From Schmidtea polychroa (Eukaryota), in the NCBI GenBank assembly GCA_044892525.1, contig CM097885.1, positions 310,001 through 374,000 on the forward strand: DNA of 64,000 nt. The letters run 5' to 3'. The position numbers and the translations under genes are program-made. How positions within the stretch are numbered: the stretch's first letter is position 1; every line of letters starts with the position of its first letter. Positions 16,569 through 64,000 of the stretch are shown here, piece by piece. The notes under the pieces were generated by a model. The model saw only the letters and a list, made by a program, of their open reading frames with translations, made no database searches and had not been told where the DNA came from.

Positions 16569-16928
16569 ACGTAATGGCATCTTCCTTTGCACTTAAATGT
16601 CAAATATTCCACACATTTCCAATAAGTTTTTTCGTTATGTTGCCTATCTTTTTGATAAAGAAAACTATTATATAAAAGTTGATTAACACCTTTTTGACTT
16701 TTAATAAATTTAATCTCCATTTTTATAATTGGAATCAATATTTAGCTAATTTAATAATTTAACTATGAAGAAATGAAAGGAAACGGAAACAATTTAAAGG
16801 GACTTTTTATTAATTTTTCGATATTTTGTTTTCGATATTTTTGTTTTCGAAATTTTGTCTATTCGATATTTTATTTTCGGTGTTTTTGTTTTAGTTTTTT
16901 TAATTTTCGGTATTTTGTCCGGGATTCC
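16569..16928 (-). mobile_element. Mutator-like (MULE) transposon end with N-terminal FLYWCH domain
   Basis: MEIKFIKSQKGVNQLLYNSFLYQKD...TYWKCVEY...CKGRC is a FLYWCH-type zinc finger. Upstream is a repeat-rich end (ttcgatattttg units, 16815-16920) finishing in GGGATTCC, typical of MULE TIRs. Confidence 0.65.
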
Positions 16929-19900
16929 CGTTATATATTTCTATTTCATTTGTAAGTTGCCCTTCACATTCAAAGTATGTTTTGCAATTATGATATAGGT
17001 CCTTAAACATATTAAGTGTATCATTATTAATGCCTAGTTCTGTTAGTGTTTGCCATATACGTTGATGCGGCACACTTCCGAATGCATCAGCGAGGTCTAA
17101 CCAGATTATGTTAATGTCGCCATTATTGCGAATTGCTCTCTCTTTAATAAGTGTAAGTACAGTGTTATGCTCAGCGCAGCCATCAGGTATGCCTATAGCC
17201 TTTTGGTTTATACTAATCAGGCCTTCAGTTCTTATCCATTCAAGTAGTCTTATATTAATTATGGCCGAAAAAATCCTATAAGCTATGTCAAGTATTGCAA
17301 GGGGGCGCCAGGAGGAGACTTCAAAGCTGGAGTTTTCTTTGTGGGGCTAAATGATCAATTTAGTCTTAAAATCTTTCCATCTAGTAGGAGTTTTAATATT
17401 TCTAAGAATGTTATTATAGAGGGAACATAAAAAAGATAGTTCAGGGTCAGATTATTAATATTATCCTTAATCTCACTAATTGTTATTATTTTATTAGTAA
17501 TTTGTTCGGGTTCTTTGGTTGAGTTGTTGTATTGTGGGTTTTCAATATTTATTAAGGGTTTTTTAAAGCTATCTATTATTTTTTCACTCGATGGTGGAAT
17601 AATTTGGACAATGTTATTAAGTATTTTATTCAGAGTTATTTTAGGTTTCTTATTATAATTGTATCTTATTTGGTAGGTCAGTTCATTTTGTTTTGTTTTG
17701 TTGTTGATATTATGTATACTTAAGGGTTTGTCATATTTGTTAGGAAAAATAGAGGCATGTATTTTAGATATCTCATTTAGACCTATTTCAGGGGTTATGT
17801 CATTGTTATTTAATTGTATATTGAGGTTGTTAAAAAATTCTTATATTTATTAATATTGTCGTTGGGTAGTCTTTCAGTTATCGTTTTAATAATAATTTCT
17901 CTTAATTGTGTTCTAATTAGGTTAATGTTAGGTGAAGAGATTATGCTATTGTTCTTATTAAGGCAAAGTGCGAAGTGACAGATATAAAAACCTGAGTCGT
18001 TTATAGAGCACGTGGGGTATTGTTGTTCTGTAGCTGTTATAGTTATAGGTGATATTATATTTTGCATACTAAGTATCGTGTTTAATATATCCTTAACTAT
18101 TGTTTCATGTTTATTAATGCTGTGTCCGCAGGTAGGGTCTATAAGGGTAGCTAGTTTCCTAGATTTATATAAGTAAAATAGTGCCCAAGCATGGCCTGTT
18201 AAGTTAAGTGGGAAGATGATTTCATTCCATTCAGGGTATTTATGAAATGGAAATGATTCAAAAAATGTTTTAAAGTTTTTCTTTATTAAGGATATACCTA
18301 TGAAATTATCGATAATTATAGTGGAGTGGAGTTTGGTAAAGGCGTGTAGGTATAGTTTAAAAGTATGCTGATTTAGTCAATCTAATCCTATGTCGGCATT
18401 AACCAGTGGTATATCATCTGGTCTTGTCTTGTCGTCTTTTTCTATTGGCGTGACACCTTTATGTTTATTAAAATGGTCAAGTTTGGTGTGTGTTTCTATT
18501 GTTGCTCCGCAGTAGCATGTGATTTGGTTAGTATTACATATTTTGTTTTTGTGCTTTGTGCTAATATGTTTATCAATCTCGTCTTGTGTGGATCTTACTG
18601 TAAGTTTATTTATGCATGGTTTCCTAAGTGATTTATTATTGCAGTTTATGGTACCTTCCTCATTTATTGTTAAGGTATGTTCCTTAAGCTTAATGTTAAT
18701 CATTTCTCTAGATAAAGGTACCGCTAAGTCTTTATGAGTTTCATTAATGTGTTCAGTGATAGTGTTCAATAAAAAGTTACATTTAATGTTTGTGTTACGT
18801 TGTGAACATAAAACGCATTGGAAGGTGTCATATTTGTTGATTTCGGTTGTGTGTACTTCTAATCTATTTTGTTAGTTGGTCTTCGAATTTAGTTGCACCT
18901 ATCTTACCTTTACAATTGGGGTAGTAACATATTAGGTAACCATCACCTCTTAGTTTAAAAATTGGTTCCCTTAGTGTGCGTAGAGCAAATTTATTGGGTT
19001 TTAGGACTGGGGTGTTTATTTTTTCAATTTCGTTTGATTCTAGTATTGGTTGGAGATCAGTTTTATTTATAATGGGGCTAGCATTAGTACACGTAGTGTT
19101 GATGTCATCTTTTGGGGTGGGGATTAATATGTTATTATGTGTTATTGTGGTTGTTTTTCCTAGTACATCAAGTTTATTTACGATTTTAAAAGCTTCGAAT
19201 GTTTGGGTATTCATGTATGATGGTTTAGTGTCATGGATATTAGAGTCGTTACTTGAAGTGTTCGATTGTGTGGGTGTGTTTTCAAAAAGATCTATACTCG
19301 AGTCTATTTGTGGGTGAATATTGCTCTTACTGTAGATCATAGGGCTGGGGTTTACAGAGTTCGTAAGCGGGCTATATGATATAGTTTCAGTCGTTGTTTG
19401 TGGTAGCATTTTAGTATTTATATTTCCATCAGAAAGTTCAGAGGATTCAGAGTCAGAGATTTGGATATCGTCAATGTCTGGCACCACAGTATTCGTTGGG
19501 TGTTCAGTTACGTCGTCATTAATTATATCAGATAGTATAGGAGATTCAGAGTCAGAAGTGTTTTGATTAATTATGTTAGTTTTAGAGTTATCATTAAGGT
19601 CGAGTTCATTATTTGCATCAGGAAGTATGTCAGATTCAGAGTCAGAGGGGTTACTGCAGTCAAGGTCTACATTACGGCTATGAAGGATATCTTTGTCAAT
19701 ATCAGGAGTTTCACGAATGTCAAGATTAGTAATATTAATTTCAGGGTCAGATTCATCGTTTTTATCACTGTCAGAGGGTATACCAGGTATTTGGTTGGAA
19801 AACTTATAGCAGGCAGTATCTTTATTCACGTCATCTTGATCATCAATGTCAATTAGGTTTGTAGTTAGGTCATTTGGGGCTGCAATTTTCCCTAACTGGT

Positions 19901-20090
19901 TCAAGGGTATTTTATTAATATGGTCATATGTCCATGGAAGATTCAGAAAAATGTGGCCTTTTGGATGTATTTATGTTGCGTTTTGGTAATATATTTTTTG
20001 AGATAGTGCTTATTTGGGTTGAGATTTGAGAGCTTAGGTTTAGTGGTCACAGTTGTAGTTGATTTATTTTTGTAGATGAGGTGAGTGGGT
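16929..20090 (-). mobile_element. NeSL/R5-like non-LTR retrotransposon, copy 1 (ORF1 zinc fingers, Ulp1-like domain, start of RT), truncated and disrupted
   Basis: ORFs 18864-19904, 18377-18769 and 17810-18067 are collinear with copy 2. RT motifs SSWRPLAILD, QKAIGIPDGCAEH and IWLDLADAFGSVPH lie at 17050-17330. Confidence 0.85.
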
Positions 20091-20954: not shown

Positions 20955-23900
20955 TAGGAGAGGCAGTTAAGGCTTCTGTCTGAATAGTTTATATGCAATT
21001 ATGAGCACTAAAACTTTTCGTTTAAATCTATCCTTAATAGGATAGAGTTTATAATAAATAGGGTTTATGAAAGAATGGTCAACGTCATCGGTTACAGAGT
21101 TTCTTTGTAAAGAAGCCTCTATGATATCATGAGAGTAATTATGGCTTACTGAGTCTAAGGAGATGTGAGAGTTAGTTGTTTCGACGATAGAAGTATCGTT
21201 TAATGGAGAAGGTTTGAAGGATATGGGATTTATCATAGAGTCATTATCCATATTAGAGTGTGAAAGGTGGTTAGAGTATTTTTTTGAGATGTTGGACTCA
21301 TCTTTAATGGGAGTTGAAGTAATATTTGGGAGATAGAGATTATCAAGATAAGTATTTGATGAGGCACTGCTCGATAGTTGGACATCATCGCAGTCTTCAT
21401 CATCAAGATCACAGGTATTAGTTTTATTGGTAGGATGGTTTAAGTAAAAAGGAGTATTATTATCCATAGTGTCCGACGAAGCTTTAAGGACTGGAGTGAT
21501 AGGAGTTGTAGCTGGATTCCTTCTCCTGGTAGTATTCCTCACTATATCTGCGTATGTTTTTGATGTAGCTTCTTTTGCATTCATTCTGTTTATTTCGTCT
21601 AAGTACCTAGGATATAGATAAATATTGGAACTGGGGCATAATTTATTCATAATCCGAAGGCTTCAATGGTTATACGTCAGATGCCTCCTGGCTTCTCTGA
21701 TAAAGTTCTCTTTTTCTCCTTGGAATTGCCACCCATTTATCAAAATTTTATTTAATAAAAGCCTGCTCCTAAGAGACAGGTTAGTCCTTTTAACGGGACG
21801 AGTTTCGGCGCAATGCCAGAAGCTTCCGCATTCATTGTTTTAAATCATCTGTCATCCAAGCCTTGTACTGGTTTAGGGATCAAGGCTGATTTCTTTTCAT
21901 CGTATAGTTCAGCGTCCATTTTATTGATTTTGTTCAGGATCAGTAGTAGGTATCGGCGTTATCATTTTTTTATTGTTGGATTTATGTTATGGGCTCTAAA
22001 AAAGGGTTAAAGATTCGGAGTAAGAAGACTCCATATTTGGTAGCGGTACAATATAATTGTAATAAGGATTGGACGGATTAGGGAAAGGAGGTTTAAAGGA
22101 ATAGGTGGTTATAATAAATATTTTAACAACTAAAAAGATATTTATCAGTTAGGCGGAGCCCTTACAAGGACTCCTACATTGACCCACTGATAATACACTT
22201 ATTTGCGATCACCTTCCTCTTCCTAGCGTCTCTTGGTTTAATTTTGGCTAATATTTCGGAGATGCATTTTTTTTGCATGTTCCACAAAAGCAGGTATGCA
22301 TTCAAGAATAATTTGAGCAGTTAAAGTATTAGGATATTCGCAGTTAAAATTGAGGATTCCATCCGTAAGTGCGTTAATATTGGCCTTAAGTTCAGAGAGA
22401 ATTACGGTTTTAGTCTCTTCAGGTAGATTAAGATCTGGCTTTTTTAATTCAAATAATATCCTGAGGTTGGTATTGACTTCGTCTTTGATATCCAGTGTTA
22501 TAGAAAGGTTTAGGATACTATTGCATATTCTTTCCACGAGTTTATCAGCGTCCAATTCGCAGTGAAAATCGGAATGTGGGACGTTTACAGCTTTCTCACT
22601 AGTCGGGTCTCCATTTTGAGTTTGTTCAGGATCGATTTTATCAGCGTCCATCTCGCAGTGAAGGTCGGAATGTGTGGGGTTTATAGATTCTTCACTAGTC
22701 GGATTTTCATTTTGATTTTCTTCATGATCAGTATTACCTAGAACTGTTATCGGTGGTTGTGCATAATTATAGGCGAAGTTCGGAAGTTTTTTGTAATTAT
22801 TGGCGTGTTTACGAGGAGCAAATGTGGATTTTCTAAGGGATCTTTCTTTAAATTTTAAAATTAGAAAAAAGTCTTTGATGATATATAGGTTAGTAGGAAT
22901 GTTTTTTATAATTTTATGGATATCTATAAAAAAAACTTTTACTTAAGTTGTAGAGTTGACAATGGTTAGTAGGTTTGTAAAGTTTGGTATTATTAGGAAA
23001 AGGAGAAGGTATGGGTTCGCTAGAAGGGTTAGCGCTTTGACATTTTCTGGGAGTCGGCCGAAGGCCGATGAGCTGTGATTGGATATTTCGGTTTCAGGGC
23101 TTAAATTTGCTGTTTAGTGTTGGTTTAAGTAAAAAGGAGTATTATTATCCATAGTGTCCGACGAAGCTTTAAGGACTGGAGTGATAGGAGTTGTAGCTGG
23201 ACTCCTTCTCCTGGTAGTATTCCTCACTATATCTGCGTATGTTTTTGATGTAGCTTCTTTTGCATTCATTCTGTTTATTTCGTCTAAGTACCTAATGATA
23301 TAGATAAATATTGGAACTGGGGCATAATTTATTCATAATCCGAAGGCTTCAATGGTTATACGTCAGCTGCCTCCTGGCTTCTCTGATAAAGTTCTCTTTT
23401 TCGCCTTGGAATTGCCACCCATTTCTGCGCAGTGCTAGGAATCTTATATGGGAGTGATTCTCCTAAGCACTGGTAAACGGCGGGAGTTATATTGTAACGA
23501 TTGTTTTTGGAATCTTGCATGTAATATTTTTATGGAAAAGAGGTGCTAGGAAGTGATTCTCCTAAGCGCTGGGAAACGGCGGGAGTAATCTGGTAATAAA
23601 TTGAGTTTCTGAATAACATTAAAGAAATATTTTCACGGTAAAAAAGGGGACCTCCATCCGGCATTGGATCATCCTCCTGCAGCAGAAATTTCTTTTTCAT
23701 TTTCCTTAACTTTTAATTTTTCTATTTCTTTAACCTTTTTATAGAAAACTTTATTATCCTTTTCTATATTTGAAAGTTTTACATTATTAAAAGCGAAAAT
23801 ATCATTATTACTGCAATTTTGATTATTAATTACCGTTATTTTAGCTTTCGGATAATTTTGAAATAATAAATATGGCATTTTCATGCTTTTCCTTGTCATC

Positions 23901-26069
23901 GGGCGAGATTTTTTTCCAATCGGCCAGTGTGATTCCATCAAGTCCTGGAGCAGTGTTTTGGAGTTGTGAGAAGATTTATTATTTAGGATCTTCGTTATCT
24001 CCTCTTTAGGTTTTGTTTTATATTTGAATCTTTTAATACAAAGCAGTTCATTTTTAGCCCTGGTTTTTTTATGGACAATGTCTGCTGGTTTTTTAATTTT
24101 CTATTTTTTCCATTTCATTAAGGGCTGTTTCACGGTCCATATTGTCGTTATTTAAATTAGTTATTAAACCTTTAATAAGTGGGAGGTATTTTTTAATATT
24201 ATCGTCAGGTATTTTGTAGGTAAAATAGTTTTCCTCAACAGTTCTGATATTTTTTTGCATAATAGTAATTTTAGGAATGGTTAGTTTAGTATTCTTTATC
24301 AGGCATTGGATGAGGTGGCACACAAAAAAGGCAACTGGGATATTCATATTTTGTGAGTGTAATTGCGAGTGGTGAAACGATTTTTTGCAGATCAAGAATG
24401 GTATTCAGTATGCTATTAGCGAGAGATAAGTGTATGGAGTGGCTAGCGTCAAGTAAAGGATCTATTATAACAGCTAATTGTCTCCGCTTATCAAGATAAA
24501 AGAAAAACCAGTTGTCTTTGCCATTTGACATTGGCATAATAATTTCGTTCCACTCTGCGAAGTCTTTGAAGGGGAAGGAGGAGAAGAAGGTTTTGTAATT
24601 ATGCTGGATTAGAAAGTTATCAACATAAGGGTCAACAAAGATGGTAGATTTTTTCATGGCGAAAGAGTAAACGAATGCCTTTATTGTGTGCTGGGACCAT
24701 CAAGCTGATTCCTCATACACGTTATATGTGAATAAGCAATCATTTGGTATTTCTCTACTATAGTTAAAATCAAAACCATTTAGACATTCTTCATCTGATG
24801 AAGTTTGTTTCCCTTCCTTTGTGTTTCAAGGTTATCTGCAATCACCTCCTGGGTGTTTAATACATTATTCATAATATTATAGTCATAATAATATTGTTAG
24901 TATTTGGTGGTATTGGGTGGCGTTGAGCTATATGATTGATAATGCCATCTATTGGGACCCAGCTCCTACATGCACAGTATATATCGGCATTTTTATCAAT
25001 AATTCTATTTCTATGTTTTTTTGACATGTGCTCCCATACACATGCCAATGGAGTGTCCCAATTCCACGTCGTAAAGCATTTTTTGTAGTTCTTATTGTGG
25101 CTATTACATGTGAGGTGATTATTTTTGTCGATTTTAATAAATATCATTTTGAGGGTATCTTTATCATTTTGTATTTCATGCACATATTGTTCGACATGTC
25201 TGTAAATGTCTTTGTGCTTAACCGGATATATTACATAGCGTTCGTCATCACCTTTGCATTGGCCGCAGTCTATGATGGAGTGTTCTGTGATAATTATGTT
25301 GTGTCTTTCAAGTGCGTGCTTATCCAATTTTTCCCTATTGTAAATGGAAATCGCTCCACAAAAAGGTGTGCGTAAGTGGTGTCTGCATCTACATTTCCCT
25401 CTGGAGTTGAAGTAGTAGAGGTTAGGATCTTGCATGTATAGTGATTTCAGACTAGGTGGTATTAATGTTTGGGTTGGTTTTGGGATTTCGCTTGTCTCCA
25501 TGGATATTTTTATTCCAACAAGGGATTTAGGTTTATTACAACTACAACATTTAGAGTTGGTAGCATTATTTTTATTTTTAGCGTTATCTGCTCCATTATC
25601 AAATGCATTAATTACGGGTAAGTTGTCTATCAGAGCGATGGCGTTTTTGGGATCATTAGAGAATAAGGATGAGTTGGACTGAAGGTTTTCGTTAAGGATA
25701 GATTTTTCGTTTAAAGGGGAGAGTTTATAAGAAATAGGGTTTATGAAAGAATGCTCAACGTCATCGGTTACAGAGTTTCTTTGTATAGAAGCCTCTATGA
25801 TATCATGAGAGTAGTTATGGCTTACTGAGTCTATGGAGATGTGAGAGTTAGTTGTTTCGACGATAGAAGTATCGTTTAATGGAGAAGGTTTGAAGGATAT
25901 GGGATTTTTTTCCATTCATTCTGTTTATCTGGTCGAGTTGCCTAAAATAAAGGTAAATATTGGAGCTATTAAAGATAATTTTATCATAGTCTGGAGGCTT
26001 CAATAGTACAGCGTTTTTTGCCTCCTGGCTTTTGTGATAAACCTCTCTTCTTCTCCATTGAGAACCCAC
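20955..26069 (-). mobile_element. Scrambled fragments of a further NeSL/R5-like family (low-complexity ORF1, Cys/His fingers, Ulp1-like domain)
   Basis: Cys/His clusters in 24869-25915. ORF 24286-24657 (FPFKDFAEWNEIIMP...WFFFYLDK...IIDP...YPSC) is homologous to the domain in the other copies. Local duplications at 21445-21745/23125-23420 and 21060-21230/25720-25910. Confidence 0.7.
22238..22651 (-). CDS. Hypothetical helical ORF within the retroelement mosaic
   Basis: 137-aa open frame with an internal ~80-bp tandem duplication at its 5' end; no family recognised. Confidence 0.3.
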   Translation of the reverse strand: MDADKIDPEQTQNGDPTSEKAVNVPHSDFHCELDADKLVERICNSILNLSITLDIKDEVNTNLRILFELKKPDLNLPEETKTVILSELKANINALTDGILNFNCEYPNTLTAQIILECIPAFVEHAKKMHLRNISQN

Positions 26070-26374: not shown

Positions 26375-29300
26375 CGTTAGTTTATTAGGAGAGGCAGTTA
26401 AGGCTTCTGTCTGATTAGTTTATATGCAATTATGAACACTAAAAATTAATTTAATAGATCGGAGTAAGAAGACTCCATTTGTGATTTTTGTAGCGATCAA
26501 ATATTATAAATTATATTATATTAAGGATTGAAAGGATGGGTCCAAGGAAGAGGAGGTTTTTAAAGAATAGGTGGTCTGGTGAGTATATGGTTATTGTTGC
26601 TATCCCAGGATCCTAGAGTACCGATTACTAGGGCTGAGATAGTAGTTTTAGTTTTATAGTATTTTTCAATATCTATGGCCAGGTACGTGTATTTAATATA
26701 GTTATTCTTAACTGCATTTTTAAAATTTTCTTTTTGTTCATACGGGACTTTTATATAGAGTAGATGAATGTTTTTATTTTATTAGAAGATATGGTTTAAG
26801 AGTTGAATTTACTCCATGAGATGAAATTTCGATATCTATGTGAAAGTTAAAATAAGAGAGACATTCGCAGACCGCTTCGAGGACACGGGAGTGTTTATTT
26901 CTGCGCGCATTAATTTTCGCAGGGCAATGGTTGAATATGTGGGCCTGTGTTTCGGGGTCTGAGTTGCATTGCCTACAGAGGATAGATTTTCTACTTTTAA
27001 GTCGATGAGGTGTGAAATTTCAGCAGGTTGTTGCGAGCCCTAACAAGGAAGAAGTATTGGGCGTCGCTAAGTATATCAGATTTGAGGAGGAAGTCAGCAA
27101 TGCTGCTATCAGTGATGGATTTGGCAATATAACCCTGATATGTTAGGATCGTCCATTTTTCTGCGTGTATAAAGCCGATGATGCAGTGCAGTTCAGAGGA
27201 GATGTCCTTCATGTTATGTTCATTAAATAATTAATTTCAAGTTGGTATTGGTCTTCCATAAGCACGATTTTTGCGTGTATGCCATATTTCCTACGAAGCA
27301 GATCGAAAGATTTTTTGAATTTCGAAAAGATAGAATGAGTTGGAAAGGCTTTAGAGATGTTACCATTAATCCAGGACATTACCTTGGCCACGTGCTAAAG
27401 CAAGTTCTGAGAGGATAAGATTACGAAAGGCTTTGTATGATATATTCGACTATTGCAGCGGTAAGTCCGAGTCCGCCCATTTTTATAGAGGCGTATAGGA
27501 AGTTATTGTTAAATTGCAAGAGTTTATCCCCCAAAGAGGTTTTTATCATTTTTCTTATCTTATCGTCAAAACCTTTTTGGAGGACACAGTCTTTTATGAT
27601 GGTATCTTTAAGAGTATCTAGTATATTATGGAGAATTTCACAATTACGGAAGAGAAAGATCAATCGGGAATGTATGAATATTTGAAGGCATTAATCTTCT
27701 GAGATGGGTGAAGATGTGAGTTTAGGATTTTTTCGGTATCGTTAATAGCGAATTCAAGTCTTTCATCAATATTGTGTCTTTTCTTATAAGCAAAGTCTAC
27801 TCCTAGATATCATCTACTTTTGGAATGGTCTCATTATATAGTTTAATTGGTTGGTGGTTATTACTGTCATTTAAGTGGAAATAACCAGATTTCGAGGGTT
27901 TAAATTTTAGATTGGCTAGTGAGGCAAGACGGATAGTTTCAAGGAGAGCAGAGGTGATTGATAGGTAAGAGTCTGAGATCAATACGATGTCATCCGCGTA
28001 TGCTAGGATACCAATATTCATATCACCAAATATGAAGGGGTGAGAGATTAGGATATTTTTATTAATATAGTCGATAGAGAGGCAGAAAAAAGTCATGGAG
28101 AGTGGACATCCTTGTTTCACTCCTTTTAGGATGGGAATTGAGGGCGATTTTTCTCCTTCGCAGTCGAAGATTGTTTATCAGCCCAATGGTGTTAGGGTGT
28201 AACCCTATTGTAGAAAGAGTATGCCAGATGAGGTCGTGTGGTAGAGAGCCGAAGGCATCAGTGATATCCAGCCAGACAATATGAAGGTCAGATTTGTTTC
28301 GTATGGAGGCATCCTTAATGAGTTGAAGGATAAGATTATGTTCAGCGCATCCATCGGGGGTGCCGATTGCTTTCTGATTATGAAGTTATTAAGAAGTGAA
28401 GTATTCATGATGGAGATCGGTCTCCATGAGCTGGCCTCGTGGCTTATCTCATTCTTACCGGCTTTGAGGATGAGTTTTGTCCTGAAGGTTTTCCAAGTAG
28501 ATGGGCAGAGGGAGTTCCTTTGGATGTTATTACATATAGAGAGAAGAAGTTCGAAATCTGGTGATATCTTTTTCCAATTGGCAAGTGTGATAAGATCTAA
28601 GCCTGGAGCGGTATTGTCAAGATTGGAGAAAATGTATTTGATCTCATCAGTATCAAATGGAGTAGGGGAGTAATTTTCTGGGAAGGAGCAAAGGAGGTTA
28701 ATAGAAAGCGGATTTGAGGTGACTAATTCCCCTGCAAACAGTTTGAGAATATTGGTCATAGTGGGTTTTTGAAAATTACATTCGTTTTTCAAGATCTTAG
28801 ATATCTCCTCCTTTGGGTTAAATTTGTATCTGTTCCTTTTAATAACTAATAATTCGTTGTCTAGTTTTTTTCTCTTATGAATGATGTCAGCCGGTTTTTT
28901 ATTATTGTATTTTAAGGCATTAATATTAACACGAGAAAAACTTTTTCGAGAAAGACTGTGGTAAAAAGAATGATATTTAAACAAAGAAAATTCTTTGTAT
29001 AAAATCGATAATTTATTCAGGTTAATAAAGTTAGAAATATTTATAATGATAATATTAACTAACTCACTAAAAAATCCATTAAAAGGGACTTCTGTAGAGT
29101 TTTTAAAATCCATAATTATTTTTTTAATAATATATTTAATTTTATTTTTAATAAATTTATCGTATTTATTATTATTTTGGTTATTGTAATAATTATTTGT
29201 GTTTTCATTTAAATTATCATTATCAAAAGTATATTTGCCAGTAGATTTATTATTTAAATTATAATTACTTAATTCACAATTATCGTTATAAGTAGATTTA

Positions 29301-30000
29301 TAATTGTTATTAATCAGGTCAGAGTTTTTATCATTTAGGTTATAATTACCATAACTTAATTCGCAGTTTTTAATATTTAAATTATAATTACTGTTATTTA
29401 ATTTACAATTAGAATTATTTAATTTATAATCATTATAGAAATTTTGATCATTTAAATTAAAAATCATTAAATTATTATTTAGGATTATTATTTATTTTTA
29501 TTATTTAGGATGTGAATCCTACGAGCAGGGCAAAAGGCTTTCCACGAGGTAGTAAATAAGTCATTGGATGTTGCGTCTGGAGTCTTTGCTCCGCTGTAAG
29601 AAGGTCTGGCAGGATGGCATATGAATCTCATTGGCATTTGGTGTCATAAGTCTTGTCGGTTTAGGTTTAGAAAAGCTTCTTCCTTGTCTGTCTGAAGGAG
29701 CAGTAGCAGATTTATGGAGTCCGGTTTCATTAGTTCTAGAAAGGAGATTAGAGTGTGTTAAATATAGGTTTTTCTCATGGTTATCTCCCGGATTGGAGCT
29801 TCTTCCATCTATAATCGTATCATTGATCTTGGAATCATCGGCCGATTTATCAAAATTTTATTTAAGTAAAGCCTGCCTCCGAAGAGACAGGTTGGTCCTT
29901 TTTACGGGACGAGTTTCGGCCAGCGGCCAAAGCTAAACAACCGAATTTTTTTATAGTTTCCCGTCCAAGCCTTGTACTGGTTTAGGGATCAAGGCTGATT
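26375..30000 (-). mobile_element. Degenerate NeSL/R5-like retrotransposon (RT and restriction-like endonuclease region, 3' UTR)
   Basis: Pieces encode APGLDLIT, SSWRPISI, KQGCPLSMTFFCL, LAYADD, GGLGL, CRQC...ETQAHIFNHC and KVPY. The 3' UTR ends near an AATAAA at about 26380-26385 on the minus strand. Confidence 0.8.
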
Positions 30001-30009
30001 TCCTCCTGA

Positions 30010-30360
30010 TTTCGTAGGTTTCTTTTTCGTAGGTTTCTTTTTCATAGGTTTTTTTTTCGTAATTATTAAGTTTATTAGGCATTTCTTTTTTGTAGGTTTC
30101 TTTTTCATAGGTTTCTTATTCGTAGGTTTCTTATTCGTAGGTTTCTTATTCGTAGGTTGCTTATTCTTAGGTTTCTTTATCGTAGGTTTCTCTATCGTAG
30201 GTTTCTTATTCGTAAGTTTCTTTCTTAGGTAGTTTCTTTTTCGTAATTATTAGGTTTATTAGGCATTTCTTTTTTGTAGGTTTCTTTTTCATAGGTTTCT
30301 TATTCGTAGGTTTCTTATTTGTAGGTTTCTTATTTGTAGGTTTCTTTATCGTAGGTTTTT
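30010..30360. repeat. 15-bp minisatellite (TTCTTATTCGTAGGT)n; reads KKPTN repeats on the minus strand
   Basis: About 20 degenerate units visible, with a higher-order duplication. Confidence 0.85.
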
Positions 30361-30900
30361 TTTCCATACAATAAAAGTTCTCAACACAAACACAGTAAGA
30401 CAAGCCAATAAAAAGTGGCAATAAGTAAAATATCATCACAAACTAATAAAAAGTGGTAAAAAAGTAAAATGTTATCACGATACTCATAAATCAAAACAGG
30501 CCATCACAAGGCTTTAAAAAGTTCGTACGATAAATATATAAAGGATCACAGCAGACGCCAACATACGATCATAATAAACAAGAGAAGATCACAATCTCCA
30601 AAAAAGAAGGCCTCAACACGGCTCATAGAAGCCAATTAAGTCATTACAAGGCTATCAGAGGGAAAAGGTCCAATGAACGCTATCATCAAATTTTTATCAT
30701 TATGTGAAAGGATTCCAAAATATTAAATGAAAACCAAGTTATTATAGTATAGATATATTATAGTACATTATAGTATAGATAAAGCATTCAATGTATAAAT
30801 ATATTCTAATTTACATATTAAATATTAGGGCAGTATTAAAACCTTATGGTGTAATATGGTACAGTATAAATACATTACAGAATAAGTATAGTAAATAATA

Positions 30901-33204
30901 TTAGTTATCAATTAATGTGTTTAAAATGTGGTCCATATAGATATTGTAGCTCGCTGTGATCGCTGTTATAATGCATTTCCTAGCTAATATGTTAATTTCC
31001 CTATCAGTCAATCCTATATCTCTTAAGGGTTTATCATTGTTGATATCCCAGGTTCCTAAAGTTCCTACAACAAGTGCATATAGTGTAGTTTTATTTGCGG
31101 TGCCAGTTTCAATAGCCAAATTTCTATATTTCTCAAAATTGTTATCTCTAGCGTTATTAAAATTTTCTATTGTGTCATATGGTACCTTAATGTCAAGTAG
31201 GTGTATTTTTTTGTTTCTATTTGAGGTTATAATTAAGTCAGGTCTTAGTGTAGTTATTGTTCCTGGTGGTGCTCTTTCTGTGTCGACTTTAAAGTTTTTG
31301 GAAGTTAGATATTTATGCGTTATTTCTAATACTCTATTGTGCTTATTTCTCCTAGCATTTTGTGTTTTGGTGCAGTGGTTGAAAATATGTGCCTGCGTTT
31401 CCCAGTCTTTGCTGCATAATCTGCAGAGTATGTTTTGGTTCTCTTTGTGCCTATTTATTGTATAATTAAGACTGAGCATGTTATTGCTTGCTTTAATTAT
31501 GAAGTAATATTGATTGTCGGTAAGAACAGTTGATTTTATTGGGTATGCAGATAAGTTATTGTTTCCTATTGTTTTTGATATGTGTCCCTGGTTGATCATG
31601 TCATACCATTTTTCAGCATACCATCTACTTGTTATATTATGTAATGTTGAGGATGTGTCTTCTATGTTATTCTTATCTATATAATTAATCTCGTTGTTGT
31701 ATTTTATTTCTAGGTTAAAAAAGCCTTTAATAAGTATTATTTTGCATTGAATATTGAATTTTTCGCGGATTCTCTTACATGATTCCCTACAAGATTTACC
31801 ACTTATGTCCCCCTTACAGTCTGCATTAAGCCAGTCGAGGGCATTATTAATGTTGATTTCCTTATTAAATGACCTGATTTTGACTATCTCTATAAGTTCA
31901 CTTAATAGAAAATTTTTCATCTTAATGTCGTCAGAGTTAAATATTCTAATAAATTGAGTGATACTTTGGATTAGGTATTCATCAATGGATGGTGTGATAC
32001 CTAATCCTCCTAAAGAGCAGTTCGCATAAATAAAGTTATTATTAAGATTTTGGTGTATGTCCTTTAGTTCATTTTTAATTATTCGTTTAATTTTTTGGTC
32101 ATAGCCTAGTTGTTTTTCTCTATTTTGTACTATTTTATTCCTATTGCAGTCTAGTATCATATGATTGATTGTGCATGTTCGCAAAGGAAAACTAAATCGG
32201 GAGTGTATAAAAGTTTTATATGCATGTGGTTTCTGTGTTGGATGTAGGTCAGAGGTAAAGATCATATTTGCGTCTTCTAGTGCCTTAGATAAAATGTCGT
32301 CAATGCTGTGTTTTCTTTTTTCACCAAAACATACGCCTAGGTATCTATAAATTTTATCGCTATCTATAATCGGGATCTTTTCATCGTATATTGTTATTGG
32401 GATATCAGAATGATTTTTTTGTAGTTGGAAATATCCGCATTGGTTTGGTCTGAATTTTAGCTTAGATCTATCGGTTAATTTGATTATATGTTCTAGTATC
32501 ATCTTAATGTTATCCCTGGAGTCTGATATTAGAACAATATCATCAGCATACGCCAATATGCTGACATTATATTCACTAATTATTAAAGGGAATTTATTTA
32601 ATATATCCTTAAGTATGAAATCTATTGCCAGACAAAAAAGTGTCATGGACATTGGGCATCCTTGCTTAACTCCGTTATGTATTTCTATTTCGCTAGTGAG
32701 CTGCCCTTCACAGTCATATAGTGTTTTACAGTTGTTATATAGGTCTTTAAATACGTTTAATGTGTTGTTGTTAATACCTAGATCTATCAATGTTTGCCAA
32801 ATTAGTTTATGTGGGATGCTTCCAAAGGCGTCCGCTAAGTCAAGCCATATGATGTTAATATCTTTATTATTGCGAATTGCTCTTTCTTTTACTAGTGTGA
32901 GGGTTATATTATGTTCAGAACAACCGTCAGGTATACCTATTGCTTTTTGGTTGATACTGATGAGGCCCCTTAATTTTACCCATTCAAGAAGTCTATTGTT
33001 TATTATAGCTGAAAAGATTCTATAGGATGTATCTAAGATAGCAAGAGGTCTCCATGAAGATATATCATAGCTTAATTTCTCTTTATATGGTTTAATTATT
33101 AGTTTGGTTTTAAAAAATTTCCAATTATCTGGAGTTTTTATGTTACGGATTAAGTTATTGAAAAGGGCGCATAAGAATGTGAGGTCAGGGTCATTTATTC
33201 GCAA
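30901..33204 (-). CDS. Reverse transcriptase, CCHC knuckle and restriction-like endonuclease (C-terminal part of ORF2)
   Basis: WRPLAIL, WLDLADAFGSIPH, GVKQGCPMS, LAYADD, YRYLG, GGLGI, CRLC...ETQAHIFNHC, RNKHN, LRPDL, LDIKVPYD. Confidence 0.95.
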   Translation of the reverse strand: MRINDPDLTFLCALFNNLIRNIKTPDNWKFFKTKLIIKPYKEKLSYDISSWRPLAILDTSYRIFSAIINNRLLEWVKLRGLISINQKAIGIPDGCSEHNITLTLVKERAIRNNKDINIIWLDLADAFGSIPHKLIWQTLIDLGINNNTLNVFKDLYNNCKTLYDCEGQLTSEIEIHNGVKQGCPMSMTLFCLAIDFILKDILNKFPLIISEYNVSILAYADDIVLISDSRDNIKMILEHIIKLTDRSKLKFRPNQCGYFQLQKNHSDIPITIYDEKIPIIDSDKIYRYLGVCFGEKRKHSIDDILSKALEDANMIFTSDLHPTQKPHAYKTFIHSRFSFPLRTCTINHMILDCNRNKIVQNREKQLGYDQKIKRIIKNELKDIHQNLNNNFIYANCSLGGLGITPSIDEYLIQSITQFIRIFNSDDIKMKNFLLSELIEIVKIRSFNKEININNALDWLNADCKGDISGKSCRESCKRIREKFNIQCKIILIKGFFNLEIKYNNEINYIDKNNIEDTSSTLHNITSRWYAEKWYDMINQGHISKTIGNNNLSAYPIKSTVLTDNQYYFIIKASNNMLSLNYTINRHKENQNILCRLCSKDWETQAHIFNHCTKTQNARRNKHNRVLEITHKYLTSKNFKVDTERAPPGTITTLRPDLIITSNRNKKIHLLDIKVPYDTIENFNNARDNNFEKYRNLAIETGTANKTTLYALVVGTLGTWDINNDKPLRDIGLTDREINILARKCIITAITASYNIYMDHILNTLIDN

Positions 33205-34178
33205 GTCTCTGTAGGTTATTTTGTCGGTGCCTGGTGCTGAATTTAGGTTTAATTTCTTAATATTATTATTAATTTCATTGATTGTTATTATCTTATTAGT
33301 TAGTTGTTCTATGTCATTGTTATTTTCAATAAGTGGTAAATCTTCAATAATAATTAAATTTTTTTTAAAATTGTTAGTAATTTTTTCGCTAGCTGGTGGT
33401 TGTACTTGGGTAACATTATTAAATATTTTATTAATAGTTATTTTAGGCTTTTCAATATAGTTATTTCTTATTTCATATACAAAATCAGCTTTTTTAATTT
33501 TTTTTCTTATATTAATAATAAAATTAGGTTTAGGGTATTTGTTTGGAAAAAGAGCATTATGTATCTTAGATATCTCATTTAATCCTAGTGTTGGGGTAAT
33601 ATCATTGTTATCTATTTGTATGGTGAGATTAGTGAGGAAATTTCTATATTTATTAATGTTGTCATCAAGTAGTCTGTCAATTAATATTTTACTAATAATT
33701 TCTCTTAATTGTGATCTTATTTGGTTTATCGTTGGTATGGTAAAAATTTCTCTATTGTTATTTAGACAGAGTGCAAAATGGCAAATATAGAAACTGGACT
33801 CTTGTATGCTGCAAGTTGGGTATTGTAGTTCAGTTATTGTTATAGATGTTGGAGATATTATATTTTGTAAGTTTAGGATTGTACTTAATATGCTATCGGC
33901 AATTAATTTGTGTTTAAGAGTGCTGTGTCCACACGTCGGATCTATCAGAGTAGCTATTTTTTTTATTTTGTTGAGGTAAAAAAGTGACCATGTGCTATCC
34001 TCAATTTTAATGGGAAAGAAAATTTCGTTCCATTCAGGGTATTGGTGGAAAGGGAATGTTTCAAAAAAGGTTTTAAATTTTTTTTAATAAGAGCAATGCC
34101 TATGAAGCTATCTATTATAATGGTTGTATATTTTTTGACAAAAACAAGTAGGTACAGTTTAATTGTATGTTGATTTAG

Positions 34179-36023
34179 TCAATCTAAATTTAGGTCAGAG
34201 TTTACTAGTGGTATGTCATCAGGAATTATATTGTTATCTTTCTCTACTGGTATGACACCTATGTGCTTATTGAAATGGTCTAGTTTGGTGTGTGTTTCTA
34301 TTGTCATGACGCAGTAACACGTAATTTGGTTGGTATTGCATATTTTGGTTTTGTGCTTTGTTTTAATATGTTTGTCAATCTCATCTTGCGTTGATCTGTT
34401 GGTAAGTTTGTTTATACATGGTTTTCTTAGTGTTTTATTGTTGCAGTTTATGGTACCTTCTTCATTTATTGTCAAGGTATGTTCTTTAAGCTTAATGTTA
34501 TTCATTTCTCTAGATAAAGGTACCACTAAGTCTTTACGGGTTTGGTTTATGTGTTCGTTAATAGTATTCAGTAAAAAGTTACATTTAATATTTGTATTTC
34601 GTTGTGAGCATAAAACGCAGTGGAAGGTGTCATACTTGTTTATTTCAGTTGTGTGTACTTCTAGTCTATGTTTTAATTGGTCTTCTAATCTAGTTGCGCC
34701 TATCTTACCTTTACAGTTAGGGTAAAAACATGTTAGATAGCCATCGCTTCTTAATTTAAAAATTGGTTCTCTTAGTGTGCGTAATGTTACTTTATTGGGC
34801 TTTAGAACTGGGGTGTTTATTTTTTCAGTTTCGTTTGTTTCTAGTATTGGTTGGAGATCAGTTTTATTTATAATGGGGGTAGCATTAGTACACGTAGTGT
34901 TGATGTCATCTTTTGGGGTGGGGATTATTATGTTATTATGTGTTATTGTGGTTGTTTTTCCTACTATATCTAGGTTATTTACGATTTTAAAAGCTTCGTA
35001 TGTTTGCGTATTCATGTATGAGGGTTTAGTGTCATAGATATTAGTATTGTTACTTATTATGCTTATTTGCGTGTTTGTAAGTGTGTTTTCAAAAAGATCT
35101 ATACTTGAGTCTATTTGTGCTTGAATATTTGTTTTATTAGAGCTAGGGTTGATTGTGTTCACAAGTGGGCTATATGAGATAGTTTCAGTTGTTGTTTGTA
35201 AAAAAGGTTCAGAGGCTATAGAGGGTTCAGAGTCAGAGATTTGGATATCATCAATATCCGGCTCAGCAGTTTTCGTTGAGGATTCAGTTTTGTCACAAAT
35301 TATTTCATTAGGTGGTATAGTAGGTTCCGCGTTGGAAGTAATTTGGTGATTTATGGCAGTATTCGGGTTATCATAATGGACAAGATCGTCAGGTACTATA
35401 TCAGAATCAGAGTCGGATGGGTTATTGCAATCAAGATCTACTTTATGATTAAGGTATGAATCAGGATTACCATTAAGGTCAAGATCAACATTAACTATTT
35501 CAGTATCGGACTCGTCGGTGTTATTGCTAATAGAAGGTAAGCCAGATAATTCATTAGAAAAGTTATAGCATATAAGGTCTTCATTCACATCATCATGATC
35601 ATCTAAGTCAATTAGGTTAGTTGTTTGGTCATTTAGCGCAATGATATTCCCTAGCTGGTTCAAGGGTCTTTTATTAATATGGTCATATGTCGATGGGATA
35701 GATTCAGAAAAATGTGGTCTTCTGGAAGTATTTACATTGTATTTAGGTATGATTTTTTTGGAGATAGTGCTTATTTCGGATAGTTGGGTTGGGATTTGAG
35801 AGCTTAGTTTAAGGTTCGGTGTAGGATTATTGGTCGTAGTTGGTCTATTCTGATAGAGAAGGTGTGGAGCGTTATCTAAGTTGGTTTTGTTATGAAGTGC
35901 TTCGTATCTATTTTTTAGTTTCGGATTTGTTGTTACATTAAAAAAGGGTTTAGTAGTGCTCGGTTTATCTTTTGGTTTGGGGTTGTTATCAATATACACT
36001 TTTATATATTGGTTTGTCATCAT
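34179..36023 (-). CDS. Retrotransposon ORF1: low-complexity region followed by C2H2-like zinc fingers, ending in the conserved TGA
   Basis: CFYPNC...HRLEVH, CVLC...EH, CNNK...PC...HIKTKH, CYC...HFNKH; homologous to copies 1 and 3. True start uncertain. Confidence 0.8.
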   Translation of the reverse strand: MMTNQYIKVYIDNNPKPKDKPSTTKPFFNVTTNPKLKNRYEALHNKTNLDNAPHLLYQNRPTTTNNPTPNLKLSSQIPTQLSEISTISKKIIPKYNVNTSRRPHFSESIPSTYDHINKRPLNQLGNIIALNDQTTNLIDLDDHDDVNEDLICYNFSNELSGLPSISNNTDESDTEIVNVDLDLNGNPDSYLNHKVDLDCNNPSDSDSDIVPDDLVHYDNPNTAINHQITSNAEPTIPPNEIICDKTESSTKTAEPDIDDIQISDSEPSIASEPFLQTTTETISYSPLVNTINPSSNKTNIQAQIDSSIDLFENTLTNTQISIISNNTNIYDTKPSYMNTQTYEAFKIVNNLDIVGKTTTITHNNIIIPTPKDDINTTCTNATPIINKTDLQPILETNETEKINTPVLKPNKVTLRTLREPIFKLRSDGYLTCFYPNCKGKIGATRLEDQLKHRLEVHTTEINKYDTFHCVLCSQRNTNIKCNFLLNTINEHINQTRKDLVVPLSREMNNIKLKEHTLTINEEGTINCNNKTLRKPCINKLTNRSTQDEIDKHIKTKHKTKICNTNQITCYCVMTIETHTKLDHFNKHIGVIPVEKDNNIIPDDIPLVNSDLNLD

Positions 36024-36349
36024 TTGATACTAAATTTGATATGGTGGATTGGTTAGTGCGAGCTAAAAACATTTTTCTCGGTTTTGGTATTGGTTTTGTG
36101 GCGGGCGTCTGTTGGTGTGGGGATTCTATCAGCGTGGTTGTATTAGGGGGTTGTGGTAAATCGGTATTTGGTTGTGGCGTTATCGGTTTGTTTAACGGTT
36201 TGTTCCACTTTACTAACTGTGCCTTCACGGCTTCGTGCTAGGCCAGTGAGCTAATCCTCTCATCCCTGCATTCTTCAATTCTTTTAAACCAATCACGTTT
36301 CGCAAATAGTATCATCACCGACTGGGATGGTACACACAGCCCCCCCCCC

Positions 36350-42116: not shown

Positions 42117-42153
<37 letters not shown>

Positions 42154-42158
42154 GTTGA

Positions 42159-42195
<37 letters not shown>

Positions 42196-42239
42196 GTTGT
42201 TGATATTATTATTATTATTGTTGTTGATATTATTGTTGA

Positions 42240-42285
<46 letters not shown>

Positions 42286-59939: not shown

Positions 59940-62900
59940 AAACTACTCCCATTGACCTCACCAACGATATACCGACAACCACTGCCACTCAACAAAACCA
60001 AACTCCCACCAACAATACTACTACAGTTCCACCCCACACTGCTAAAACAAAAATATCCAATAATACTTTTCGGAGAGAACTAAGAGAACTCTCTAAACAC
60101 TTTTGGACCATGTTCCACAAAGACCCCTCCTACATAGATACTATAAAAGAATATAATAGTAAGATATACAGCAACAACAGCAACCAACCACACCCAATTA
60201 ATGCTTCTGATTCCCACAACAATATAACGGAAGCAAACCCACCTGCACCGGCCAACAACAACCTTTCTACATCCACCACTAACAATACCACTAGCGTCCC
60301 ACAACCTCATTCCATCCCCTTCCCTACCACACCCACAGAAACTCAATTTTCCCCATTCAATGATAGTCAATCAAAGACAATACAATCAACAATTAAACCG
60401 CCCACCTACACTACTACATTAAATACATGCAATAATAATACCGAAACCCCAATACACTCATCCCCAAAAAAGGATACAAATATCTCCTACAATAAAAGTG
60501 ATAAGCATCTTATACAAGAAATCCACAGAATAATCAACTGCAACAATCAAGAAACCTCCAAAAAACATGAAACAACCACAAAAAACCTGCAACAAAGCAT
60601 AATACAACAACAACATGAACAAGCTAATACACACAAAACATTAACGCTCCTAATCACACAAATGACAAAATTGCAACAACAAATACTCACACACAATACA
60701 GCAGCATCGTCCCAGCTCCCTCACGACATTGATGATGAACACCTAACTCTCACACCCAGGGATGATGACCTAAACATACCTCCACAATTCCATCAACCCG
60801 AACCCTCAGACAATGAATCAAATGAATCCCAATCGTCCGATGACAATGACGGATATATCACAGAAATAGAACGACAAGTCCATGTGAATAACAAAGTCGA
60901 CATCGATGAGACCCCAACTCAACAAACACCATCACAATATGAACAAAATAACACAACCCAACAAGAACAAACAATAAAAAGAACAACATCTTCCCGCGGC
61001 TCCCTTTTTTCACCAATGGAAAACATAACTCCAGTGGACCTCAACGACCCCTTTAACACGTATCATGCACTAGATGTCCTCAACATAAAAGACTTTGCAA
61101 TCGTTAAAGACATAATGAAAACGCCACCAGCACTTTATACACAAACCTCTGAATCATCCACCAATACACCCAATCCACTATATAACCTGCTCAACACCAA
61201 CGAACAACCAGTTACACAAAACCTCACTACGATCGACTCCCCATTCACTCTCAAAAAACAGGCACTATTCAACAACATGAACACATGAAAAGCATGCACG
61301 ACCGAATTATCAAAGACACAGACACATTTGAATGCCTAATGTGCCAAAGACAAAGGAAAAAAGGACAGAACCAAACCAAATTCCTTCTCACAAATATTGA
61401 AGAACACTGGCTTGATTATCATCCCGAAAAACAAATCCCTGGTACTAGAGAACAATATAACGACAAAAGGAGAATCCTCACACTAGAGCTCAACGAAGAG
61501 GGAACACTATTATGCACATACATATGCAAGAAAAACCCCTGTGATATACATCTGACTGTGAAGACCACCGCCACGGACATACTCAAACACATCTCTACAA
61601 AACACAAGAGTAAAGTATTTGACCAGACCACAAACATCAAATGCCACTGCGGTGAAACAATAAGCTTTGATAATATGAAACAACACCACCAATCACACAT
61701 GGGAATACTTGAACCCACTGAAATAAACATTGAGCCCCCCCCCCCACAAACATTCCAGTAACCTCCAAAGACATAGACTCTGACTGACTAAACCAGCACC
61801 AGATCTTCGCATACATGCTAACACATGCAACTACTGAAAACACTATATACATAGATAGCTTTATAGGTCTTGCATGCATTGAAAAACACTACCAAACCTT
61901 TTTTTCTGCCTTCCCATTTCATAAATATCCTGGATGGATAGACCTAATTTGGCCCATGAACATAGAAAAGAACCTCTGGATACTCTTCTACATTAATAAA
62001 CAACGCAACCTTTCTACAATTATTGACCCCACTTGCCAAATTAGCACCATGAAACATTACAACACAGCAACAACAATACTCAACATACTGACCAACCTAC
62101 AAAACATAATAACCACAAATGAATTCACCTTACAAGAACTAACATATCCCAGATGCAATGAAACAAAGCAATCAGGATACTACATATGCCACTTTGCCAA
62201 ATGCCTAGCCTCCAACAGATGCATCACACTCCCCAACATACAAAAGATACGCACAGACCTTAACAAAATAACAAACCTAATAATATATAGAAGGAAAGCA
62301 ACTGATGATGTGACCAGATATACCGCATTCATTGATGACATAATTACTCAGCTTGACACTAATACTATTGATGTTGATGAGAGCTTCCAAGAAATAGCCA
62401 AGATACATGAAGCTATATACCCTAACAAATACAAAAATAAAACAATACCAGCAAATATCCTCAACACAAAAGGCAATAAGCGCTTAGTATTCGAATTACG
62501 ACTAGACTTTGATAGAAGACCAAAAGCAACAATCGAAAAAATACTCACCAAAAATGAAAACACAACGACCACACCGACAGACGATGACATCTACAAAAAC
62601 TTCCAAACCACAACAAAACACATAACTAAATATAGTACACCAGATACACAACCCTCATATATTGACCTTATATCAGATAAACCCATAACAGACACAGAAC
62701 TCAACGAATCCATACTCAAACTTGACAGCACATCAGCCCCTGGTAGTGACAAAATCACATACAAAGAATGGAAAAAGATAGACCCAAAAAACAAATTTAG
62801 ACTTGCACTTTTTAACAACATACTACGCAATGGACATAGCCCCAAAACCTGGAAAACCTTTAAAACGAAACTCATCCTTAAACCAGGCAAAGAGCAATCA

Positions 62901-64000
62901 CCGCACGAAGTATCATCCTGGAGACCACTTGCAATACAGGACTCAGCCTATCGCACCTTTGCCTCTATCATGAATGATAGACTTCTCTCATGGATTCAGA
63001 TAGGACACTTGCTGAGCACTAACCAGAAAGCGGTGGGTACTCCGGATGGATGCGCTGAACATAACACAGTTATCAGTCTCGCCAAGGAATGTGCAGTGAG
63101 AAATGGGAAGGATATTAATATCATCTGGCTGGACCTTGCAGATGCCTTTGGTAGCCTTCCGCATGACCTTATTTGGCATACCCTGTCGAGACTGAAACTG
63201 AAGGCAAAAACAATCAACCTTATTAAAGAAATGTATACTGACTGCTACTCAATATACGAATGCGAGGACCGACGATCAAGGGAGATACGGATAAACAATG
63301 TAGTCAAGCAAGGCTGCCCAATGTCTATGACTTTGTTCAGCCTCTCCATTGATTATATCCTCCAGAAAATCCTCAATCAACACCCACTTATTATAGATGG
63401 ACACAATATAAGCATAATGGCATATGCAGATGACATTGTCATGATCTCCAACACACGGCAAGAAATAGGCAACATGTTACGAACTATAGTAGAACTCGCT
63501 GACATATCACACCTTAAATTCAGACCCTCTAAGTGCGGCTACTTCCAATTACAACGAAACCACAAAGAGATACCCCTAACTATATACAATGAAAAAATAC
63601 CCATCATTGATCATGACAACATATATAAATACCTAGGAGTTGACTTCGGCCAGAAAGGCAAACATGACATTGACAACACACTCATAAAAGCGATTGATGA
63701 CACAACAAAAATAATAACCTCTGACCTACACCCAGCACAAAAACTTCAAGCATACAAGACCTTCATACACTCTAGACTAATATTTCCCTTCAGAAATTGC
63801 ACAATTAACAACATGATTCTTGACAGCAATAGAAACAAAGTAGTACAAAATAGGCCCAAACAATTAGGTTATGACCAAAAAATAAAGAGAATATTAAAAG
63901 ACACACTAGATGATATACACCAGAACATTAATAACAACTTCTTTTATGCACATTGTAAACTAGGAGGTCTTGGCATAGTGCCAAGTATAGATGAATACAT
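59940..64000 (+). mobile_element. NeSL/R5-like non-LTR retrotransposon, copy 3 (third family), running off the window
   Basis: A/C-rich coding strand; ORF1 pieces 60110-61288 and 61285-61761 with zinc fingers, then TGA at 61785-61787 and ORF2. 5' boundary approximate. Confidence 0.88.
61788..64000 (+). CDS. ORF2: Ulp1-like domain and reverse transcriptase, apparently open to the window end
   Basis: SAPGSDKI, SSWRPLAI, IWLDLADAFGSLPH, VKQGCPMS, MAYADD, YKYLG, GGLGI. The first and last codons are in the same frame and the ORF track lists no terminated plus-strand ORF here. Confidence 0.88.

Follow-up and report, generated by a model that had tools for sequence, protein, structure and literature searches.

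Retrotransposons without long terminal repeats (non-LTR retrotransposons) that belong to the clades of the R2 group are known as elements with only one open reading frame (ORF) (PMC3636483). For nematode NeSL as well as for Utopia-1_TSP, a single protein with an N-terminal Ulp1-like protease is described (Kojima and Jurka, PMC4640811), and in the same description the planarian LIN families group with R5 at a bootstrap value of 96%, 28S rRNA or tRNA genes being named as their targets. Here we report on a stretch of 64,000 nucleotides (nt) from the genome of Schmidtea polychroa (assembly GCA_044892525.1, contig CM097885.1, positions 310,001 to 374,000 of the forward strand; in the following, the window), which contains four copies (A to D) of related non-LTR retrotransposons with an in-frame TGA and a fifth, B-like copy of the same kind without this junction. 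Like NeSL-1 of Caenorhabditis and Utopia-1_TSP, as these are presented in PMC4640811, the elements combine zinc fingers, an Ulp1-like (C48) protease domain, a reverse transcriptase (RT), a C-terminal zinc finger and a restriction-like endonuclease; unlike those two, for which one protein is given there, they have their frame divided by the TGA, where the protease domain has its first conserved residue, into an upstream part (ORF1) and a downstream part (ORF2). This conserved in-frame TGA extends to at least seven lineages (A to G) and several hundred copies, and it probably serves as a site of stop-codon readthrough.

All four stops of the window are TGA, lie in frame and are followed by the peptide LNQH or WSQH. 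A preliminary description of this DNA had quoted the four sequence contexts (Table 1), which on rereading the window proved correct in sequence, coordinates and strand, and it had pointed to homology resuming in frame directly past the TGA (seen at 4/4 sites) between otherwise highly diverged copies; the amino acid identity of ORF2 to copy C indeed spans 31-76% (58-76% in copy A, 53% in copy D, 31-47% in copy B). The genome was searched as a 781-Mb assembly including four contigs of 93-272 Mb, with the window located on the largest of them; these searches score the best candidates only, and a rare copy could escape. The ORF2 of copy D, used as a query, returned 63 match rows belonging to families at 95-97%, 56%, 53% and 45-46% identity, most of them with 1,087-1,105 open codons downstream of the stop. 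TGA precedes LNQH in each of the 23 loci of this search that reach the junction, and in 12 of these the upstream frame is in phase and open to the edge of the locus (at least 499 codons); the TGA is present as well in 12 of 12 additional loci, which belong to the families at 53% and 45%, with an upstream frame open for up to at least 831 codons. Overall, the junction codon is TGA in 35/35 loci examined, with ORF1 upstream in the same frame.

Pattern scans in which the junction codon was left free gave the same picture. The LNQH-type scan yielded 70 matches, comprising 55 TGA, 2 TAA, 1 TGT, 1 TCA, 11 other codons and not a single TGG (6 matches in a control with the reversed pattern), and the WSQH-type scan yielded 137 matches (none in its control), among which the 100 listed comprise 98 TGA, 1 CGA and 1 TAA, again without TGG. 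Among the matches listed, TAG does not occur, and TAA is confined to 2 of the 70 and 1 of the 100; a TGG consensus or a free drift between stop codons, both of which had been considered at the outset, is thus not what the genome presents. When the stop-free protein P0018, a relative from outside this genome, was used as a query, 140/140 matches contained a TGA, in 138 of the 140 exactly one and no other stop. Three more lineages were read by eye, all with ORF1 open upstream and in phase with the TGA: lineage E (TGA CTA, peptide *LSDSAIETFF, 6 loci), lineage F (TGA CTA, peptide *LSQTAIEYYI, 5 loci) and lineage G (TGA CTC, peptide *LSQAAIEVYL, 2 loci). How far these are diverged is best seen in lineage F, which shares with lineages A-E 14-25% identity over the junction region of approximately 240 residues.

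The constancy of the stop has to be set against its surroundings. Between lineages, the synonymous differences have reached saturation before as well as after the stop (proportion of synonymous differences, pS, 0.61-0.99), and the TGA accordingly stays constant where synonymous neighbours vary, as the preliminary description had expected. The corresponding nonsynonymous proportion (pN) is 0.05-0.33 in the 50 codons past the stop and 0.09-0.51 in the 40 codons before it, and the closest pairs show a ratio of nonsynonymous to synonymous rates (dN/dS) of 0.04-0.12 on either side. It is this protein-level constraint which argues that the stretch directly past the stop is translated. A control is built into the elements themselves: the terminator of ORF2 varies between TAA, TAG and TGA (the latter in B3 and in one B4 copy), even within B4, whereas the internal TGA is fixed.

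The position of the stop within the protein is equally constant. Ten stops from the seven lineages fall into one alignment column, in which P0018 carries a Trp. A profile built from the alignment of these ten sequences and P0018 matched PDB sequences (16 distinct ones at E <=0.01) that without exception are Ulp1 or SENP proteases (best matches: Ulp1, E 5.3e-13, and SENP5, E 1.8e-10), and the stop column comes to lie, with high posterior probability, opposite the W with which WLND begins in Ulp1, SENP5 and SENP2, which is where the preliminary description had suspected it. Two other placements were considered and rejected: one residue before the Trp, as obtained by profile and MAFFT from lineages A-D only, was overturned once lineages E-G were added, and one residue after the Trp, as suggested by one VIA range, was overturned by the alignment with lineages E-G. 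Structural models lead to the same domain. The lineage C model (predicted local distance difference test, pLDDT, 69) matches the CE-clan fold (Foldseek E 6.5e-6; VIA Z 15.7), and the lineage F model, with a mean pLDDT of 80.7, aligns to SENP5 with Z 18.6 (root-mean-square deviation 2.5 over 175 residues) and to Ulp1 with Z 18.3 (model residues 26-215 to Ulp1 431-621). In the latter model, the ten residues preceding the stop score a pLDDT of 85, and the structural alignment with Ulp1 begins approximately 15 residues upstream of the stop; the stop is therefore located inside the C48 domain and not between domains.

Searching 1.84 billion representative proteins with a profile of the junction region revealed 12 relatives from outside this genome, among which only P0018 (277 residues) spans the site of the stop, its zinc fingers and C48 domain being joined in one uninterrupted frame; a word-indexed protein search gave 7 matches, and a pattern scan of metagenomes for outgroup DNA gave 141 matches, none of them a relative. 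Eight of the 12 (P0003, P0010-P0012, P0014, P0016, P0017 and P0020) are predicted proteins starting 15-40 residues past the stop column, which is the outcome expected from a gene caller if their own DNA has a stop there.

UGA is the only stop codon that is one wobble mismatch away from the codon of Trp. Taken together, the observations are in our view better accounted for by readthrough of the UGA, probably by tRNA-Trp, than by any other explanation. Most ribosomes would end at the UGA and release the ORF1 protein with its N-terminal region and zinc fingers, which would be abundant, and a minority would decode the UGA by a near-cognate tRNA and continue in frame, giving rise to a rare fusion of ORF1 with C48 domain, RT and endonuclease. 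The near-cognate tRNA most plausibly would be tRNA-Trp, returning the residue that the domain needs, and the stop would set the ratio of the two products. Decoding by tRNA-Trp would explain both the location of the stop at the Trp column and the exclusion of TAA and TAG; the invariant in-frame TGA at the Trp column and the protein-level constraint to either side of it are what the sequences show, and readthrough itself, the inserted residue and the product ratio are what we infer. At known sites of UGA readthrough, the inserted residues listed in PMC13517186 are Arg, Cys or Trp. Going one step further, we tentatively propose, at somewhat less than even confidence, that near-cognate decoding by tRNA-Trp both rations the fusion and restores the Trp, a structure-free, "self-correcting" readthrough, which would make these the first non-LTR elements dependent on readthrough.

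The nucleotide following the stop is C in 6 of the 7 lineages, as part of CTC in lineage G and of CTA in the other five (A, C, D, E and F), and CTA makes up only 10-34% of the Leu codons in these elements. UGA CUA corresponds to the type II readthrough context given in PMC13517186 for Sindbis, o'nyong-nyong and PSI viruses. In lineage B, the codon directly following the TGA is the Trp codon TGG (window 24697-24699 and all B loci), in the other lineages it is a Leu codon.

Several points weigh against readthrough in the form proposed here. Translation past the stop is deduced from the sequence. The leaky UGA-CUA context claimed in the preliminary description holds for five of the seven lineages and fails in lineage B, the most abundant one, which has UGA-UGG and not UGA-C, and the preference for CTA itself is suggestive, with weak statistics, the approximately five lineages sharing ancestry. 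A conserved stem downstream of the stop, which had also been predicted, could not be found: the consensus fold of the seven lineages from -6 to +140 nt contains 0 pairs, single folds of 123 nt have z values between -0.70 and +1.74, and 150 nt on either side, folded for 11 sequences, range from z -3.92 to +1.59 without a common helix. Not every known readthrough site requires a stimulatory structure of this kind. The lineage C model is of low confidence before the stop (pLDDT <50, residues 1-46). Finally, in lineages A-D, and hence in the four window copies A to D, T, L, S or N stands in place of the catalytic His and Ser in place of the catalytic Cys, so that the restoration of a catalytic Trp cannot explain the constraint in these lineages; lineages E, F and G, located elsewhere in the genome, retain the catalytic His, Asp, Gln and Cys altogether. 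The C48-like domain of lineages A-D is nevertheless under strong protein-level constraint and may have a non-proteolytic role. What the preliminary description had predicted on the level of sequence has for the most part withstood the analysis, namely the fixed TGA and its Trp column; the conserved stem and an ORF1 consisting of zinc fingers only have not.

Among the alternatives to readthrough, a separate ORF2 protein survives best, albeit as an unlikely one: translation could reinitiate after the UGA or begin at an internal non-AUG codon, or the start codon could be supplied by a trans-spliced leader, trans-splicing being known from flatworms. Termination-reinitiation is the mode described for SART1 and L1, and others use 2A peptides (PMC5972666 gives these cases). 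The elements do not share a start near the stop, since the first Met of ORF2 is found at codon 10 in lineage D, 15 in B1, 55 in B2-B4, 148 in C and 476 in A, where it falls inside the RT and is preceded by 475 codons without any ATG; the preliminary description was right in stating that no ATG is conserved downstream. Moreover, the homology to the C48 fold crosses the stop, which itself occupies the column of a conserved residue, and the identity of the stop would be free to vary like the terminator of ORF2 but is fixed. As for trans-splicing, no AG acceptor is conserved at the CAR codon (+7 to +9), where several copies have CAA and lineage E has GAT.

Quite unlikely, too, is RNA editing, by which the A of the UGA would be converted to inosine in some transcripts, yielding UGG (Trp) and a fusion protein translated from the edited RNA. 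It would account equally well for the position at a Trp codon, the absence of TAA and the constraint on both sides of the stop, and a precedent exists in the amber/W site of hepatitis delta virus, where a stop likewise is found at a Trp position and is converted for the longer protein. The site of this virus, however, is a UAG within a defined double-stranded RNA, unlike the UGA considered here, for which no conserved pairing is seen: the pairing probability of the A ranges from 0.00 to 1.00 among lineages, and no duplex is conserved in the consensus. Editing would also permit TAG, which was seen neither among the listed pattern matches nor in the P0018 matches, and the 5' neighbour of the edited A would be a G, the least favoured one for ADAR. 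Contigs from four public sequencing runs bridge the TGA of a D-lineage locus and show neither a joint nor a listed letter difference at this codon; the runs are of unspecified type and contigs drop rare variants, and this observation does not bear on expression, splicing or editing.

A special decoding of UGA, either as selenocysteine by means of a selenocysteine insertion sequence (SECIS) or by a dedicated UGA-reading tRNA, has in its favour that recoding of this kind makes use of UGA alone among the stop codons, and yet we regard it as very improbable: a search of the window and of 12 loci for Rfam families, SECIS included, gave nothing above threshold except for a tRNA-Lys in the loci, and TGA is not a general sense codon, terminating some of the ORF2s. 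A genetic code generally reading TGA as Trp is ruled out, since every element contains 13-16 TGG codons but a single TGA. Hardly credible, finally, is a fixed defect in copies that are unable to make RT and depend for their mobilisation in trans on rare masters lacking the stop; retrotransposons do include non-autonomous families, and a rare master might be missed by searches scoring the best candidates only, but 0 TGG were found among the 170 listed pattern matches and the 140 protein matches, ORF2 is open over 1,087-1,105 codons in most young copies, and its strong protein constraint in every lineage is unlike that of dead cargo.

By their domain content, the elements are non-LTR retrotransposons of the NeSL/R5 type within the restriction-like endonuclease group, with the domains ordered as N-terminal region, zinc fingers, Ulp1/C48-like domain, RT, CCHC finger and restriction-like endonuclease. 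Pfam recognises the RT (RVT_1) in copies C and D and Peptidase_C48 in copy D (E-values in Table 1), and zf-RVT remains at 22.3 bits, under the cut-off of 27.5; by eye, the C-terminus of copy C contains a C-x2-C-x9-H-x4-C finger, followed by an endonuclease motif of the form R-P-D ... D-I-K. Several C2H2-like fingers are visible immediately before the stop of copy C, and the Pfam scan gave no zinc-finger match in ORF1. An ORF1 with zinc fingers, as previously described, is thereby upheld, but not as a protein of zinc fingers alone: in full-length copies of lineage C, ORF1 comprises approximately 1,165-1,231 codons (L043 3-3497), without any Pfam domain in the Pfam scan. One such full-length copy consists of approximately 1,165 and 1,100 codons divided by the single TGA, and the predicted readthrough protein of this lineage would have approximately 2,300 residues.

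Within the window, copy C is best preserved: a frame of 616 codons leads up to the TGA and goes on past it, in phase, as LNQH, until about 100 nt further on an A-run between 34083 and 33960 shows a 1-nt frameshift peculiar to this copy, behind which 1,060 codons are open. Copy D has 737 open codons from the TGA to the end of the window. Decay, or truncation by the window end, affects copies A, B and D. The coordinates of all copies are collected in Table 1.

Table 1. Copies of the TGA-divided elements and associated features; positions refer to the window unless a locus (L) is named
Feature	Position	Strand	Remarks
Copy A, whole	16927-20043	-	
Copy A, in-frame TGA, GAT TGA CTA AAT CAG CAT	18377..18379	-	frames 18377..18871 and 17810..18376 contiguous, one frame
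Copy A, ORF1 remnant, decayed	18380..20043	-	tblastn; matches full-length ORF1 of lineage C, residues 627-1165
Copy A, ORF2 remnant: C48-like domain and first half of RT	16927..18376	-	tblastn; residues 1-505, 3' part missing
Copy B, whole	23898-25903	-	
Copy B, in-frame TGA, GCT TGA TGG TCC CAG CAC	24700..24702	-	
Copy B, ORF1 remnant, frameshifted	24703..25903	-	tblastn; residues 341-765 of lineage B2 ORF1
Copy B, ORF2 remnant, frameshifted	23898..24699	-	tblastn, translation; residues 1-332, remainder missing
Fifth copy, B-like, 5'-truncated, RT to endonuclease, without junction	26575..28912	-	tblastn; residues 214-1049
Copy C, whole	29842-36210	-	
Copy C, in-frame TGA, GAT TGA CTA AAT CAA CAT	34179..34181	-	
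Copy C, ORF1, 5'-truncated	34182..36210	-	starts near residue 493-564 of the ~1,200-codon full-length ORF1
Copy C, ORF2: C48-like domain, RT, CCHC finger, PD..D-x-K endonuclease	30901..34178	-	Pfam RVT_1, E 1.8e-28
Copy C, 3' untranslated part with tandem repeats	29842..30900	-	blastn against L043 and L044
Copy D, in-frame TGA, GAC TGA CTA AAC CAG CAC	61785..61787	+	corresponds to L001
Copy D, ORF1 remnant	60038..61784	+	frameshifted near 61270 and near 61740
Copy D, ORF2: C48-like domain and RT, open to window end	61788..64000	+	Pfam Peptidase_C48, E 7.1e-5; RVT_1, E 5e-29
tRNA-Lys(UUU) gene beside lineage E copies	L049 22-94; L045 3534-3606; L048 3533-3605		

A tRNA-Lys(UUU) gene lies approximately 185 nt upstream of lineage E copies, and this neighbour may represent an insertion target or a promoter taken over by the elements. 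R5/LIN elements are reported to target 28S rRNA or tRNA genes (PMC4640811), and the elements described here probably belong to the same clade as the planarian R5/LIN cluster, an assignment we regard as a candidate one. Arrays of lineage E at a spacing of approximately 7 kb occur on contig 4 near 76.7 Mb and also on small contigs. Among the matches listed, the junctions of lineage B cluster near contig ends (contig 1, 0.3-1.3 and 269-271 Mb; contig 2, 189.0-189.6 Mb), in the last of these regions 2.4-2.9 kb apart, as would be expected of truncated copies arrayed in tandem; the window is located 0.31-0.37 Mb from a contig end, and a 5'-truncated copy of lineage G adjoins telomere-type (CCCTAA)n repeats (L056 1-270). 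Tandem repeats of roughly 100 nt are present in the 3' untranslated parts of copy C, L043 (7254-7672) and L012 (4959-5211). A separate element of the window (38866-42546, minus strand) has a frame of 1,226 codons with the domain of a protein-primed DNA polymerase B (DNA_pol_B_2, E 1.3e-27), and fragments of such polymerases just below the Pfam cut-off are located at 53837-55147 (minus strand) and 13275-14546 (plus strand); the three segments look like Maverick/Polinton-like elements.

Readthrough of a stop codon in front of a polymerase is known from other systems. The nsP3/nsP4 junction of alphaviruses and Plautia stali intestine virus (PSIV) share the UGA CUA with five of the seven lineages described here, and place the polymerase in the readthrough product as well (PMC13517186, Table 1); they possess an extended downstream stem-loop, of which no conserved counterpart was found here, and unlike theirs, the stop in the planarian elements represents a conserved Trp within a folded domain. 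In murine leukaemia virus (gag-UAG-pol) and in Tca2 of Candida (gag-UGA-pol), the stop likewise lies between the structural or nucleic-acid-binding and the enzymatic parts and, as stated in PMC2194720, provides an excess of the first product; those are elements of the LTR type with downstream pseudoknots, whereas the present ones are non-LTR elements with target-primed integration, and no pseudoknot was found. Non-LTR elements face the same problem of obtaining little RT from an RNA which also encodes an upstream protein, and those described solve it by means other than readthrough: UAAUG coupling in SART1, reinitiation in L1 and a 2A peptide in L1Tc (as summarised in PMC5972666), and frameshifting in HeT-A (PMC5009743). 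For Zorro3, the bypass of the stop is called unclear (PMC3956500).

We found no report of readthrough for NeSL/R5 or any other non-LTR element in the literature covered, outside of which lie the original descriptions of R5 and NeSL-1 as well as Repbase. Retroviruses, LTR elements and alphaviruses are known to use stop-codon readthrough; its use by a target-primed non-LTR clade, as suggested by the sequences, would be new as far as this literature goes. R2, NeSL and their relatives are now studied as tools for gene insertion; to our knowledge, the control of RT-endonuclease dosage in R2/NeSL-type elements is largely unknown, and we know of hardly any study on translational recoding in planarians. 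For the annotation of such genomes it follows that gene callers will break these elements at the TGA or begin ORF2 at a false ATG, as they appear to have done in the predicted relatives. If readthrough holds true, these elements would exemplify, in nature, how target-primed retrotransposition can have its dosage controlled by readthrough, would offer a clean model for the question why a recoded stop must be UGA, and would provide a structure-free readthrough cassette usable in planarians.

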